Part shown: positions 4,593 through 23,174 of the stretch, one piece after another
Layout: every line of letters begins with the position of its first letter
How positions within the stretch are numbered: the first letter of the stretch is position 1
From: a virus
DNA: 64,000 nucleotides
Virus record (IMG/VR): IMGVR_UViG_3300035181_002522
Span: 100,332 to 164,331 of that record
Reading direction: 5' to 3' (one strand)
Translations under genes and position numbers: made by a program
The notes under the pieces: model-generated
The model's database searches: none
Told to the model about the DNA's origin: nothing
The model's input: the letters and a program-made list of their open reading frames with translations, nothing else

Positions 4593-4648
4593 CCATACAG
4601 TTTTACTTTTTATCATAAATACAAATTTAATAAAGTAAAACTGTATGG
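4593..4648 (+). promoter_or_regulatory. Late promoter inside a start-codon-sequestering hairpin
   Basis: Perfect 17-bp IR CCATACAGTTTTACTTT/AAAGTAAAACTGTATGG covering ATG 4645; TAAATA in the loop. Confidence 0.7.
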
Positions 4649-5505
4649 ATTATCAGAAGCATTATTCCGCTCTTATTGAACGGGCCAAAAATAGAATTAT
4701 TGATGGGTATACTGAACAACATCACATTATTCCAAATTGCTTTTTCAAAAACTCTTCTAGACGGAATACAAAACATTCGTCATTTGCTGGTTGGTTAGAT
4801 GGTAATCGGGATGATAAATCGAATTTAGTAAATTTGACACCAGAAGAACATTATGTTGCTCATCAATTATTAGTTAAAATATATCCGAATAATTTAGCAC
4901 TGTTATTTGCTGCTAATATGATGGGCAATACTAGAAAGGGAAATAAATGTTATGGTTGGTTAAAAAGAAAGCATTCTGATCGAATGAAAAATTTACCAAT
5001 TGAAATTAGATTAAAAATTTCAAAAGCTTTAAAAGGAAGAAAAGTTTCACCAGAAACACGTCAAAAAATTAGTAAATCTAAAAAGATCAATAATGCGATT
5101 AGAAAAAAATTGATATCAGAAGGCGTATTAGAAAAGCCTACACGCAAAACTTTCACACATTCTGAAGCCACAAAACTTAAATTTTCTAAAAATGCTAAAC
5201 AGTTACATCCAAATGGGCCCTTTTTTGGAAAAACTCATACTGAAGAAACAAAGCAAAAAATAAAACAAAGTAATACTAATTTTGTTCATACTGAAGAAAC
5301 AAAAGCTTATCTTTCTGAAATTAGAAAAGGTGAAAATAACCCAATGTTTGGCTCTATTGGGACGATGGCAGGAAGAACAGGAAGTTCACACCCAGCGTTT
5401 GGATCAAAATGGTATGTTAATACTATTACTGGAGAAATTAAAAAATTTCGACCTGAAGAAATAAATACTTTGTGTATAACATGGAAACCAGGAAGAAAAT
5501 TATGA
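4645..5505 (+). CDS. HNH homing endonuclease with NUMOD3 repeats
   Basis: YTEQHHIIP...NLVNLTPEEHYVAHQLL; HTEETKQKI and GENNPMFG motifs. Confidence 0.9.
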   Translation: MDYQKHYSALIERAKNRIIDGYTEQHHIIPNCFFKNSSRRNTKHSSFAGWLDGNRDDKSNLVNLTPEEHYVAHQLLVKIYPNNLALLFAANMMGNTRKGNKCYGWLKRKHSDRMKNLPIEIRLKISKALKGRKVSPETRQKISKSKKINNAIRKKLISEGVLEKPTRKTFTHSEATKLKFSKNAKQLHPNGPFFGKTHTEETKQKIKQSNTNFVHTEETKAYLSEIRKGENNPMFGSIGTMAGRTGSSHPAFGSKWYVNTITGEIKKFRPEEINTLCITWKPGRKL

Positions 5506-10513: not shown

Positions 10514-10639
10514 GCCGGTATAGTTTAATGGTAGAACTGCCAAAAAACATCGTTTACATTTTTTGTTAGCAATAACCGCTAGTAAATGGTTATCCATTCC
10601 AAGGGGAAGATCGTGGTTCGATTCCACGTGCCGGCTCCA
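10514..10639 (+). ncRNA. tRNA-ended RNA with conserved insert, copy C (Gly-like)
   Basis: Acceptor GCCGGTA/TGCCGGC-TCCA; insert 10542-10594; ATTCCAA loop; T-arm CGTGG-TTCGATT-CCACG. Confidence 0.82.
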
Positions 10640-18545: not shown

Positions 18546-18838
18546 TAATGGAACTTTAACTCAACTTTGTTTTTTGTTTGTCTCTCACTTTGGAGCACCT
18601 CCTTGTCGGCGCTTATATCAAATAGACAAGGGACTAATTATGAATGAATGTCGTCAAAAATTCTGCTTAGGAAAACAAAAAGAATTTAAACGCCAAGGTG
18701 GATGGATGAGTGGATACGTTCTTCCTGTTGGAAGAACGTGGAAATGAATGGCCAACAAAAAGGTTCGACATTCAGCTGTTGCTTCCGGTGGAGCATATAA
18801 AAAGAGTTGGGAATTTTTTGAATGGTGTTAAAATATTA

Positions 18839-18913
18839 GCCTGCGTAGCTCAATGGTAGAGCGCTGTACTGTCACTGCAGAGGCCACGGGATCGTTCCCC
18901 GTCGTCGTCGCCA
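18839..18913 (+). tRNA. tRNA-Asp(GTC), mismatched acceptor
   Basis: CTGTA-CTGTCAC-TGCAG; D-arm; GCCA end. Confidence 0.75.
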
Positions 18914-18932
18914 AATTTACGAATATTGAACC

Positions 18933-19553
18933 ATGAAAATAAAAGAAGTTACGTTAGAAATGGTTCAACGAATTCCAGCAGTTAAGTTGCAACTTGAAGA
19001 TGTCGCTAAAAATAAAAAAGTCTTTAAGAAAATAACTCAGTTTACGTCAAAAGCTAAATTGGTTCAACATTTTGATACTGGAATTAAATTATTCCAATTA
19101 GATAAAGGTAAAGAAACTGAGTTTTTTGGAGTAGATGAAGAGCAAGAACTTATTGCGTATTATTTACGATATGAAATTCAAGATGTTGATTTTTTAGATA
19201 CGAGTTGGGTTACGCAAGTTATGGTTTGGCGAGGTCATTTATCCTCAAATAAATCAGAGGGAATTGCTAAGCGTATTTTTTACGATTTCGTTTTGGCGAA
19301 ATTTGGAACTGCTATAACTGATGGTGAACAAACTGCTGATGGCGAACGATTTTGGAAACAGCGAATTATTGAAGCTTTTTCTAATGAAAAATTGAAAGTT
19401 TACATTTTAGATTTTCATCAAAAACAATGTAAGCGTTTACTAAAAGACCAGTATATTAAGTTGCTTAATACTAAAAATGATCCTTGGGGAAATAGTGCTT
19501 GGCATAAAGGAATTAGATTAGCAATCTCTGATTTTGATTTAGTTCAAGAATGA
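18933..19553 (+). CDS. Phage protein of unknown function (paralogue of 26504-27150)
   Basis: QVMVWR...AITDGEQTADGERFW shared with QSLVWR...IITDSKQTWNGRSFW. Confidence 0.7.
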   Translation: MKIKEVTLEMVQRIPAVKLQLEDVAKNKKVFKKITQFTSKAKLVQHFDTGIKLFQLDKGKETEFFGVDEEQELIAYYLRYEIQDVDFLDTSWVTQVMVWRGHLSSNKSEGIAKRIFYDFVLAKFGTAITDGEQTADGERFWKQRIIEAFSNEKLKVYILDFHQKQCKRLLKDQYIKLLNTKNDPWGNSAWHKGIRLAISDFDLVQE

Positions 19554-19559
19554 TAAATG

Positions 19560-19765
19560 ATTGTCGGAAGATTACTGTAATCGAAGGTGCGAACGGTCAA
19601 TAATATGTGGCATTTAGCAGGAATAGTAAATTATGCTACTTGCATAGGTCAGGTTCAGTCACAAGAAGAAAAACGAAAAAGAAAAGATACTTTAGCGGCC
19701 ATTGGACATCAACAAGGTGAAAATATTCCAGACGGATGGATAAAAGGTCGAAAAATGAAAAATAA
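19560..19765 (+). pseudogene. Homing endonuclease C-terminal remnant
   Basis: GHQQGENIPDGWIKGRKM tail typical of such endonucleases; no intact N-terminus. Confidence 0.5.
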
Positions 19766-19766
19766 T

Positions 19767-19840
19767 GCGGGTTTGGTCTAGTGTCTGGGCCCCAGCCTTC
19801 CAAGCTGGAGAGGCGGGATAGTTCCCCGCAACCCGCTCCA
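19767..19840 (+). tRNA. tRNA-Gly(TCC)
   Basis: GCGGGTT/AACCCGC-TCCA; CCAGC-CTTCCAA-GCTGG; atypical T-loop. Confidence 0.85.
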
Positions 19841-19848
19841 ATTTTAAT

Positions 19849-19926
19849 TCTCTGACCTTAGCTACGGGGCGAGGTGACTGGCCGGCCAGCTAAAAAAGGG
19901 AAGTTCGATTCTTCCTCAGAGAGCCA
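19849..19926 (+). ncRNA. tRNA-like RNA with palindromic middle arm, copy 1
   Basis: TCTCTGA/TCAGAGA-GCCA, T-arm GGAAG-TTCGATT-CTTCC, palindrome CTGGCCGGCCAG. Confidence 0.65.
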
Positions 19927-20586
19927 AACATTCAGGTGAGATACTTCGTGGAGATTTTGTAATTTTATTACAGGTTTTTCTATACGAGTCACACTCTTTC
20001 AAATTGTACAAGAAATGTGTTCAGCTCCGATATTGTTATTGTGGTGGCTTAAAAATATTCCTGAAGAAAAGCAAGAAGAAGTAGCTGATAAGTTACGAGC
20101 ATGGTTAAAGACCGCGCCAAACCGATTAGATATGGTGCATTGTGGCGATTGACAAAATAAAAGAGGTTTCATTCGAAACTCTTACACAATAGAAGGGTTA
20201 GCCCTTACTCCAGAAAAAGCATAGAGCTTTACAACTTTCTCAATAAACCAGTTATCATAGTAGAGCATTTTGCCTATCTAATAAGTGGCTCATTTATGCG
20301 TGAAACAAATTGTCTAGACACTTCTACATATAATATAGAAAAAGTAGAATGAAACTAACTTGCAGTCACTGCGGAACTGATTATGATGGTATTGATAACC
20401 ACTGTGAAAGTGGTATAGGTCACTGGGAATATGTAGACACTGCTGACGGCATTTGGGAGATTTGGTATTGTTGCTAATAATGAACCCCGCAAGACATTTT
20501 TCTCCGCTGAGCTAAAACTTTTATTGTTCAATTAATGAATTGGTGATATAATAATTTTTTTATTGTAGTCACTGAGGAGTTGAAAA

Positions 20587-21231
20587 ATGTCTGAACTTAA
20601 TGTTAAAGAAACTATTCATAACGCTGCAGAAATCAGAATTGGAATAAGGGCAACATACAAAAAATATCGAAACCTTCAAAAGGTTTTCAATATCATCTTT
20701 ACCGATGAAGTTTCAGTGCTTAAGTCTTTGATCGATGGTATCTACTACTTAGGTGGTGGTTATCCTGCTGAAAATAGTCCTGGTCGATTCGAATTTGCTA
20801 TCGAGAAAGCAGCAAAGTATGCAAGGTATTACTCATTTATTGGAAAGCAGGATTTAATAATTTCCGAATTCAAAAAGTATGGTATTACCATAAGCATTGA
20901 CAATGAACTACAAGATACCCTTCTTTCTACAAACGAGTTGCAACTCATTAAAGAAGTATTGCCAAATGAACAGTTGATGTCTCGTCGCGACCTTTTGAAC
21001 CGATTGATTGAAATTGGTTGCGATTATCAGCGATCCATCTGCAAAAACGCCGACATCATTAAGTTAGACTTGAAACCACGAGTCTTAGAGTCTAGTGGTA
21101 TGCACGTTCATGAATTTAGCAAGGCTTTAGAATTGGAAATTGATTCTGTCAACACGAAATCATCAAAATTCACTAAAAAGAAGCAGACTTTTATGAAAAG
21201 TATCTTAAATTTCCAACAGTTGGTGAAATAA
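20587..21231 (+). CDS. Hypothetical protein
   Basis: 214-aa ORF; GAGGAG RBS. Confidence 0.75.
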   Translation: MSELNVKETIHNAAEIRIGIRATYKKYRNLQKVFNIIFTDEVSVLKSLIDGIYYLGGGYPAENSPGRFEFAIEKAAKYARYYSFIGKQDLIISEFKKYGITISIDNELQDTLLSTNELQLIKEVLPNEQLMSRRDLLNRLIEIGCDYQRSICKNADIIKLDLKPRVLESSGMHVHEFSKALELEIDSVNTKSSKFTKKKQTFMKSILNFQQLVK

Positions 21232-21287
21232 AACTTAAAACCAGTGCAAAAATGTTAACTCGTTAACAAAAATTTAAGCTTGAACCA

Positions 21288-21316
21288 TTTACACATAGTT
21301 AAAAAAAGAGTATTAT
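21288..21316 (+). promoter_or_regulatory. Sigma70-like early promoter
   Basis: TTTACA-17 bp-TATTAT with AT-rich upstream sequence. Confidence 0.6.
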
Positions 21317-21379
21317 TATCTCACATTCGGAAAACACCGAATCGAAGTTGAAAATCTTACTTTAATTACCTATGAGGAA

Positions 21380-21853
21380 ATGACCATGAGAACTACTACT
21401 TATGCAGAAAAATTCAATGCCAAAACCATAGCTTACAATGCCTTGGTCAAATTGAACGCTGAACTGGAAGTTGCTCGTAAAGCAAAACGCGATGCAAAAG
21501 CGAATGGCGAAACCGAAGGTGCGGTATTTACCACTTACACTGTTGTTAAAGATGCTCAAAAAGCAGCTTACGGCCAACTGGTCGACTTGAACGCTGAATT
21601 GAAAGCAATGCGTACCAGTGGCACAGCCTTTGAAAAGGGTGAATCAAAACAGCGCGGTCGTAAACCAGCAAAACCTGTTGAACCACATAACTTGGCCGAA
21701 TTGAAAGCAATCCTGGAAACCTCCGGCATTGAATTCAAAAATAAAGGTATCATGTTGGACATTGCCGGTAAACATGTAACATTTGCGGCTGGCCGTTTCG
21801 TAGTTGACAAAGTCAAATTTGGTCCTGCTGAAATCATGGGTGCTCTGAAATAA
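21380..21853 (+). CDS. Basic hypothetical protein, probably highly expressed
   Basis: GAGG RBS; host-like codon choice; Lys/Ala rich with a RGRKP motif. Confidence 0.75.
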   Translation: MTMRTTTYAEKFNAKTIAYNALVKLNAELEVARKAKRDAKANGETEGAVFTTYTVVKDAQKAAYGQLVDLNAELKAMRTSGTAFEKGESKQRGRKPAKPVEPHNLAELKAILETSGIEFKNKGIMLDIAGKHVTFAAGRFVVDKVKFGPAEIMGALK

Positions 21854-21871
21854 GGGCACCCACCCTTTACC

Positions 21872-21954
21872 CCCACGACCATTAAGGTGATATGGTGATA
21901 AGCTAGTTGGCCAACTAGCTTAAAAACGGAAGTTCAACTCTTTCTCGTGGGCCA
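21872..21954 (+). ncRNA. tRNA-like RNA with palindromic middle arm, copy 2
   Basis: CCCACGA/TCGTGGG-CCA, T-arm GGAAG-TTCAACT-CTTTC, 24-nt palindrome 21899-21922. Confidence 0.7.
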
Positions 21955-21976
21955 ACTTTCAACTAGCTATAAAATT

Positions 21977-22207
21977 ATGTCTTATTCATTAAAATTTACT
22001 GGATTTAAAACTCAAGCAGAAGCAGAAACTTTCGCTAAGTGGTATGAAGGACAAGGCGAACAAGATGCTGCAGTGTGGTTTGAGTGTTGTAAAGATGATG
22101 GCATAATTAATACCGATTTTATGCCAGTTGATGTGCATACCCCATTTGAATGGGACGATGACACTCTAGTTGTTAAGTTGGATATATCACACGAAGATGA
22201 TGAATGA
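21977..22207 (+). CDS. Small acidic phage protein
   Basis: GFKTQAEAETFAKWYEGQGEQD motif. Confidence 0.6.
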   Translation: MSYSLKFTGFKTQAEAETFAKWYEGQGEQDAAVWFECCKDDGIINTDFMPVDVHTPFEWDDDTLVVKLDISHEDDE

Positions 22208-22571
22208 TTTGTTGTGTTTGTAATAACATTTCAGATCGACAGATTATCAGTGCCATTAACGCTGGGTATAATAAAAAACAGATAGTTAATGAATTTCGTA
22301 TTGGTAAAAAATGTGGAAAATGTGTTTTATACACTAAACAGCTAATTAAAAAAACTCAAGAGGATAAAAATGGTTAGCATATTCACTATTGTCGCTGGGC
22401 TATTAATTGTTTATGGTTTGTATCGACTTTTTAAAGGCGCTTATCGTGAAGGTGCAACTGAGATTATTATCGGTATCGCTGAGTTGATTGGACAACTGTT
22501 GGTCACTCTGCTGTAAATGTATCTACTGGTTCAAATAAATACATTTTTAAATTCGCATTTGGGGTATTCAA

Positions 22572-23174
22572 ATGATATTGGTTGAACTATTAAGCATTAT
22601 GGAAGCTCGTAAAGCTGAGCTTTCTTATGAAGAGAAAAAAGTAAAAGGTGCATTAGATCGTGTTATCTTGTCATTGCAAGGTAATCAATCAGGTAAGTTC
22701 ACCAAGCTAATCTCTAATTACAAAAAAATTCAAAAAGCAGTTGAAGCTCTTGCCAAAAAACAAGGCGAGCTTAATGCCCATTTGAAAGAAGAAGTTGAAG
22801 ATCTATTTGATGCCGAAGATGAAGTTTACACGCGTGTAGTTGATACCATTTCAGCGACACTGACTTTGTCTAAAAAACAAAGTGTAACTACGACTAAAAT
22901 TGATTATGAAGCCATTTTGGCTAAAATCACAGAGTTGCAGCCAGAGCTTGAAGAAAAAATTAAAGAGTTGACTACTGAATTTACAAAGGTGACAACTGCT
23001 GAAAAATCTCCAGCTCTTCGTACAATGATTAAAGAAGCTGAAAGTTTGGAAGAAGGCTTAAAAGAACTTGCTAAATATGTTAAAGATATTGCAAAAGCTG
23101 CCTTGTCTGCAATTAAAGGTTGGGGCAAATCTTATGACAAAAAACTTGAAAAGATTGTAGCAGAGCTAAAATAA
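22572..23174 (+). CDS. Coiled-coil late protein, possible virion component
   Basis: TAAATA at 22536; IME/IKE/LEE candidate prohead-protease sites. Confidence 0.65.
   Translation: MILVELLSIMEARKAELSYEEKKVKGALDRVILSLQGNQSGKFTKLISNYKKIQKAVEALAKKQGELNAHLKEEVEDLFDAEDEVYTRVVDTISATLTLSKKQSVTTTKIDYEAILAKITELQPELEEKIKELTTEFTKVTTAEKSPALRTMIKEAESLEEGLKELAKYVKDIAKAALSAIKGWGKSYDKKLEKIVAELK

Follow-up and report, generated by a model that had tools for sequence, protein, structure and literature searches.

The final 64 kb (the window) of G000, a 164-kb IMG/VR phage contig, encodes two small RNAs, RNA1 and RNA2, that are shaped like tRNAs and have no anticodon loop. Comparison with their homologues indicates that the structure of both is under selection, because a related phage contig keeps the fold by matching mutations, and that both are working RNAs unable to read codons. 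They belong to a small family of tRNA-shaped RNAs that are under selection, do not decode and are not matched by Rfam; this family is real but rare and is carried by few large phages. We favour, with moderate confidence, the reading that RNA1 and RNA2 are cut from polycistronic RNAs by tRNA-processing enzymes and that the tip of the arm standing in place of the anticodon arm engages a partner.

RNA1 and RNA2 have a tRNA body and no anticodon loop

A first-pass annotation of the window had given RNA1 and RNA2 one common layout, and all the parts that it listed for both are present at the positions in Table 1. The body is that of a canonical tRNA, with a 7-bp acceptor stem, a 5-bp T stem with a UUCRANY loop, GG in the D loop and a 3' CCA. 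The D-type hairpins of RNA1 and RNA2 are of 4 bp and hold the GG in their loop, and no bases occupy positions 8-9. Despite this body, neither RNA is called by ARAGORN in a default run, and a 2.3-kb search with the Rfam tRNA model RF00005 (threshold 29 bits) gave no match to them even at E<=10. The homologous copies described below, on the contigs L039, L192 and L056, are likewise not called as tRNA.

In place of a canonical anticodon arm (5 bp, 7-nt loop, U33, purine at 37) the family has a hairpin of variable length, with stems of 4-10 bp and loops of 4-7 nt. The only 7-nt loop, that of the L039 copy of RNA2, has A at the U33 position. Since no member has a canonical anticodon loop and four helices are kept, the description of these RNAs as non-decoding tRNA mimics is supported.

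The 3' ends were annotated as GCCA in both RNAs, which is correct for RNA1. In RNA2 the 7-bp acceptor stem abuts CCA with no discriminator base, and reading the end as GCCA leaves 6 acceptor pairs. The L039 orthologue (10564-10573) has one extra G before CCA and reads normally. The G-run of RNA2 (21945-21954) is one G short in four independent assemblies, so the missing G is not an assembly error.

Table 1. Features of RNA1, RNA2 and their surroundings (window coordinates unless prefixed)
Feature	Position	Strand	Basis or remarks
RNA1, tRNA-shaped RNA without anticodon loop	19849..19926	+	sequence; R1 model match; orthologue L039:9154-9232
RNA1 acceptor stem, 7 bp	19849-19855 with 19916-19922	+	sequence
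RNA1 D-type hairpin (CC..GG), abutting acceptor stem	19856..19874	+	sequence; layout also in RNA2, L039, L192
RNA1 UGA linker	19875-19877	+	sequence
RNA1 12-nt palindrome	19878-19889	+	sequence; followed by A-run
RNA1 arm	19878..19893	+	favoured: 4-5 bp stem, 6-nt loop holding GGCC
RNA1 T arm, 5 bp, 7-nt UUCGAUU loop	19899..19915	+	sequence; 2/5 pairs double-changed in L039
RNA2, tRNA-shaped RNA without anticodon loop	21872..21954	+	sequence; fold z-score -3.2; orthologue L039:10489-10573
RNA2 acceptor stem, 7 bp	21872-21878 with 21945-21951	+	sequence
RNA2 CC..GG hairpin, then UGA	21879-21895	+	sequence
RNA2 arm, 24-nt perfect palindrome	21899..21922	+	as RNA: 9-10 bp stem capped by (U)GGCC(A)
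RNA2 T arm	21928-21944	+	sequence; AAAAC linker before arm
tRNA-Gly(UCC)	19767..19840	+	ARAGORN; Rfam 44.7 bits
Promoter-like site before 157-aa gene	21288..21316	+	10/12 consensus matches
157-aa gene, function unassigned	21380..21853	+	no family match; homologues P0001, P0002
10-bp hairpin around stop codon of 157-aa gene	21837..21862	+	9 nt upstream of RNA2, no U-run after it
Ro60/TROVE protein, 554-aa open frame	G000:C1:59582-60577	-	~40 kb upstream of window

Homologues occur in few phages

Orthologues of both RNAs are carried by L039, a syntenic 53-kb Logan contig that was reached via an 82%-identical relative of the 157-aa protein encoded upstream of RNA2. Four JGI contigs (99% protein identity) also carry both RNAs, identical or nearly so, and add no new information. 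A further member was found by a DNA pattern built from the common features; it lies in an unrelated, complete 116-kb phage with terminal repeats and one ordinary tRNA (L056:2774-2848, the same as L191:7545-7619). Another, at L192:9344-9428, lies in a 314-kb ENA phage contig, a relative with 69% identity in a neighbouring protein, and matches covariance model R2 at 41 bits. Covariance-model searches had been proposed in the first-pass annotation, and models R1 and R2 indeed recover RNA1 and the L056 and L192 RNAs; R1, built from RNA2 alone, matches RNA1 at 39.8 bits (E 1.6e-9) and the L056 RNA at E 3e-6.

Further searching returned little. Apart from L056, five DNA-pattern scans of IMG/VR gave ordinary tRNAs or coding DNA only, and a metagenome scan gave no convincing member among the matches listed. 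Megablast of the region against GenBank phages produced no match, and neighbour-protein scans of IMG/VR with the 157-aa protein and a 214-aa protein found no relatives. In the tRNA clusters of G001-G004, more distant relatives identified via the tail sheath, no orthologue was found with an acceptor/T-arm script or with models R1 and R2, and contigs carrying further homologues of a 206-aa protein had normal tRNAs only. A match to GGCC plus a T loop in G001, at 155.7 kb, was rejected as coding sequence.

Compensatory changes maintain the fold

The helices were compared in an alignment of five members (A5), from which L192 was left out. In A5, 98.2% of cells are in standard pairs and 15 of the 25 pairs are changed on both sides; the D-type hairpin, which is helix 2, is 100% paired. 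None of 500 shuffles reached any of the five measures, and slid partners were paired at 39-52%.

The orthologues in L039 show the same at closer range. RNA1 and its orthologue differ at 11 positions, four in the T stem, one in the acceptor stem, three in loops and three in the arm. The four T-stem changes make up two compensatory pairs, and the acceptor change turns U-A into U-G. In the arm, U to C at 19879 and A to G at 19892 together keep a pair, and A to G at 19893 adds one. For RNA2, when the two sequences are read with a 1-nt gap in the loop, the outer four arm pairs are unchanged, two pairs become G-U, two are changed on both sides and the tip pair is lost; in the same reading a T-stem G-U becomes A-U and an acceptor C-G becomes U-G. 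With the gap placement of MAFFT, one both-sided change is counted in the RNA2 arm. The stem substitutions between the two phages all keep pairing, with the exception of one arm-tip pair. These data bear out the earlier statement that structure is conserved and sequence is not, as four helices are kept by compensatory changes in orthologues and paralogues alike.

The arm ends in a conserved self-complementary tip

Perfect palindromes had been proposed to replace the anticodon arm, and in this phage they are present in the sequence. They are not conserved, however, for both are broken in L039: a U-to-C change interrupts the 12-nt palindrome of RNA1, and the RNA2 arm has a 9-bp stem and a 7-nt loop, in which GGCC is still present. 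A palindrome without a loop has no way to fold back on itself; as RNA, each forms a hairpin with a self-complementary 4-nt loop. Perfect palindromes of 12 nt number 82 in the genome, against 52-96 in 20 Markov simulations, so the RNA1 palindrome taken alone is not significant. The 24-nt palindrome of RNA2 is among the 10 that reach 20 nt or more in the 164 kb.

For RNA1, three candidate registers of the arm have energies within a few kcal/mol of one another. The minimum-free-energy fold of RNA1 uses another arm than the palindrome hairpin first noted, and RNAalifold prefers the register of this first fold, which the L039 changes keep through G-U pairs. The register that we favour, with uncertainty, pairs 19878/19879-19882 with 19889-19892/19893 around a 6-nt loop (19883-19888); it is the minimum-free-energy fold of the L039 copy and is supported by the compensatory change in its stem.

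What is shared by all arms is the tip. A self-complementary tetranucleotide is found there in 6/6 members, GGCC in RNA1, RNA2, both L039 copies and L056, and CAUG in L192. GGCC was kept in L039 though flanking arm positions changed. RNA2 and the L056 RNA, dissimilar elsewhere, have the same ten nucleotides at the centre of the arm, which argues that the tip is functional.

Several related sequences were seen elsewhere. The 8-nt word in which GGCC is flanked by UU and AA has 9 copies in G000, against ~1.7 expected from base composition only; one copy lies inside a second 20-nt perfect palindrome (G000:13471-13490), in what is apparently coding DNA. In G001, two odd tRNA-shaped genes (L031:6205-6302 and L030:19658-19771, minus strand) have G+C-rich palindromes in their inserts, one of 12 nt inside a nested-T-arm RNA and one of 10 nt inside a ~40-nt insert in the anticodon region of a tRNA.

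Genomic placement fits excision from longer transcripts

RNA1 starts 8 nt past the end of tRNA-Gly(UCC), and because of this short spacing the two are probably co-transcribed; the RNA1 orthologue in L039 is likewise paired with a tRNA-Gly. RNA2 sits in the 3' untranslated region of the 157-aa gene, 18 nt past its stop codon. The hairpin around this stop codon is stable in both phages (-18.3 kcal/mol here, -18.0 in L039), and no terminator-like site was found on the + strand of 18700-22700, including the gap between the 157-aa gene and RNA2. By eye, a promoter-like sequence similar to the one before the 157-aa gene occupies the same position in L039 and L192. In L192 the sites that RNA1 and RNA2 occupy in this phage, behind the tRNA-Gly and the 157-aa homologue, each hold a terminator hairpin.

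A minihelix of acceptor stem and T arm is the minimal substrate of RNase P. Such an element, of 45 nt and with an acceptor stem and a T arm only (L191:7622-7666), comes after the family member of the L056 phage. The placement of RNA1 and RNA2, the absent terminator, the upstream hairpin and the L056 minihelix fit excision from longer transcripts. In this phage (G006), ~550 nt of non-coding DNA upstream of its only tRNA (Ala) form a chain of folded modules (L191:7370-7920), in which the family member and the 45-nt element are followed by further T-arm-like hairpins and a short A-rich motif recurs at the module borders.

The sequence of events that we favour would begin with polycistronic transcription, in which RNA1 follows tRNA-Gly and RNA2 follows a protein gene. 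The retained parts, namely the acceptor stem stacked on the T arm, the D-loop GG for the elbow and the G-CCA end, would be recognised by enzymes of tRNA maturation, and host RNase P and 3'-end trimming enzymes may then excise the RNAs. Excision would cut the transcript and leave the upstream mRNA with a protective 3' hairpin, and it would also free a presumably stable small RNA. On this RNA the conserved self-complementary tip (usually GGCC) would be exposed, and its probable role is to bind a partner, which could be another copy of the RNA or a protein.

In mascRNA-type transcripts (MALAT1/MEN-beta) and in the tRNA punctuation of mitochondria, a tRNA-shaped element with no meaningful anticodon lies 3' in the transcript and RNase P makes a protected upstream 3' end. 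The arrangement at RNA2 may be similar, in that the -18 kcal/mol hairpin precedes it. Those systems differ in being eukaryotic or organellar, and they have nothing that matches the conserved self-complementary tip.

Several points weigh against this reading. The fold z-score of RNA1 is weak (-1.4 here and -0.05 in the L039 copy). The model to which A5 was fitted already held three helices and, of the arm, the outer pairs but not the inner ones. After five pattern scans of IMG/VR and one metagenome scan there are 6 sequences from 4 phages in all, so the covariation rests on few lineages. Indels of 1 nt are seen at the 3' ends, with GCCCA in L039 RNA1 and the discriminator base missing from RNA2, and they would be odd if the CCA end were critical. 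Finally, a pure processing signal would have no need of a conserved tip or a maintained arm, so that a role in trans is implied.

Alternative readings of the arm and of the RNAs

A self-complementary tip could pair with itself, and the alternative that survives best, unlikely as we consider it, is that these RNAs form homodimers in which the tip or arm of one molecule pairs with that of another, through either a kissing loop or an extended duplex. The product, a two-headed mimic with two CCA ends, would soak up or bridge factors that bind tRNA, and it might be aminoacylated. As in the HIV-1 DIS and the loop-loop pairing of phi29 pRNA, a short G+C-rich, A-flanked self-complementary loop could mediate pairing between RNAs. 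The arm tip is a self-complementary loop sequence conserved among homologues (GGCC in five, CAUG in one), and it differs from those systems in offering only 4 conserved nt, in a loop of 4-7 nt. The tetranucleotide in all six arms agrees with pairing between molecules, as do the 16-nt perfect palindrome kept by L056 and the 10-nt one in L192 (sequences read by eye), the weakness of the L192 arm as a hairpin (-3.1 kcal/mol), and arm-only cofolding, which favours duplexes by 11-21 kcal/mol.

However, the long palindromes are not conserved in L039, and in whole-molecule cofolding the gains (-10 to -21 kcal/mol) overlap those of the window's real tRNAs (-3 to -18). Palindromic tips are also partly a genome-wide habit. 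In the whole contig, 12 of the 55 perfect tetraloop hairpins (at least 7 bp) have a self-complementary loop and are thus spacer-less palindromes, about three times the ~7% expected. This excess may stem from bidirectional terminators or from template-switch correction. As to aminoacylation, the suggestion that these RNAs are acylatable decoys found no support: they are without G3:U70, a long variable arm or an anticodon, and no known identity set was recognised. In a related and still less likely proposal, based on tip-to-tip pairing with self or with each other, the RNAs would make up a symmetric particle that carries two CCA ends and two upper halves of tRNA, and the phage would use it to capture or bridge host factors acting on the ends of tRNAs. 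If this were true, its targets could include defence toxins that modify or cleave the CCA end.

It is improbable that RNA1 and RNA2 are decaying tRNA genes that lost their anticodon loops and have no function. Both are missing from the syntenic sites in the 69%-level relative L192, and RNA2 has lost its discriminator base, as decay would have it. Against this, substitutions in the stems preserve pairing in the way described above, the unusual layout recurs in three paralogue types and an unrelated phage, and the tip sequence is conserved across unrelated phages.

A more doubtful possibility is that they are Y-RNA-like tRNA mimics serving as partners of a phage Ro60/TROVE protein, which this contig encodes. 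Bacterial and phage Y RNAs hold tRNA-like domains (PMC4201824; PMC7824862). YrlA and Yrn1 have T-arm, D-arm and acceptor-like parts, and RNase P, the CCA-adding enzyme and enzymes that modify tRNA recognise them; the 'anticodon arm' of Yrn1 has 5 bp and a 6-nt loop (PMC4201824). Y RNAs differ in that their termini form a long Ro-binding stem and their genes lie beside rsr, whereas here the termini are a plain 7-bp acceptor stem with CCA and the TROVE gene is ~60 kb off. Moreover, a family member is present in the complete L056 phage, which lacks a TROVE gene, and G001 has TROVE and no member was found in it. No Y-RNA model of Rfam, YrlA included, was among the matches in the region or in 6 kb around the TROVE gene.

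That the palindromes act as DNA, as the site of a dimeric protein or the target of a nuclease, is very improbable. The tips coincide with typical type II restriction words and homing-endonuclease genes are nearby (NUMOD3), but the compensatory changes keep RNA pairing, including G-U pairs that are meaningless in DNA, and GGCC occurs in the genome at 1.01 times its expected frequency. Least credible of all is a decoder of four-base codons with UUGGCCAA as an 8-nt anticodon loop and GGCC as its anticodon, since, even though the RNA2 and L056 tips could open into such a loop, with U at the U33 position and A at 37, resembling the loop of tRNA-Gly(GCC) plus one G, the loop of the L039 RNA2 is 7 nt long and lacks U33, that of RNA1 is 6 nt long, the arm varies from 4 to 10 bp and the L192 tip is CAUG.

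Relation to known RNA classes

The tRNA-like domain of tmRNA, including that of tag-less phage mini-tmRNAs, likewise has an acceptor stem, a T arm, CCA and a long helix for the anticodon arm. It differs in having G3:U70 with A73, the alanine identity, in lacking a D stem and in usually carrying a tag reading frame. A tmRNA domain was rejected here, for the 3:70 pair is U-A, C-G or U-G, the discriminator is G and there is a 4-bp D stem; ARAGORN finds no tmRNA.

The nearest published parallels are RNAC and RNAD of phage T4 and the tRNA-like Y RNAs. RNAC and RNAD are longer than RNA1 and RNA2. Also called species 1 and 2, they are small, stable RNAs transcribed from a region of phage tRNA genes, and their function is unknown (PMC3014915, PMC9697503).

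Three further readings were tried and dropped. L039 has a hammerhead-like motif downstream of RNA1 that is not kept in this phage. Neither an acceptor stem extended to 9 bp nor one in a shifted register pairs, and an attP reading is contradicted by the presence of the full 5' acceptor strand.

The scaffold of RNA1 and RNA2 may have descended from an unusual tRNA lineage of these phages, because a tRNA-Arg(ACG)-like gene of 68 nt in G001 (L029:16219-16286, minus strand) likewise has a D arm that directly follows the acceptor stem, positions 8-9 being absent, and its linker is 3 nt long. That gene has a normal anticodon arm of 5 bp with a 7-nt loop and is missed by both ARAGORN and Rfam.

Other odd tRNA bodies are found in the same phage group. 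Bodies with a ~50-nt insert ending in a conserved GTTATC-like word lie at L031:10275-10584, L031:536-659, L032:8217-8354 and L032:3566-3676; as they occur in the relatives G001 and G002 and in the window at ~8.2-10.6 kb, this family is conserved across the group.

The phage and the neighbourhood of RNA1 and RNA2

The contig is ~46% complete by estimate and has a G+C content of 35%. It codes for a contractile tail, with sheath and tube genes. In the window, 11 tRNA genes were identified by ARAGORN and 2 more by Rfam, and two YqeY-domain proteins, a NUMOD3 endonuclease (4645-5505) and a GGDEF protein are also encoded. The segment 3' of RNA1 (19927-20587) is homologous to a 123-aa gene of L039 (9285-9656); it looks split or dead in this phage because of an in-frame stop.

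Implications for phage tRNA repertoires

RNA1 and RNA2 are experimentally tractable, being short, with predictable ends and a 4-nt motif that can be mutated. Annotation pipelines overlook genes of this type entirely, which means that phage 'intergenic' regions are under-annotated. Why large phages carry many tRNA genes is still debated. Here the tRNA body is kept under selection and the decoding loop discarded, which shows that part of the phage tRNA repertoire is non-translational in role, with transcript processing, decoy functions and scaffolding as candidate roles.

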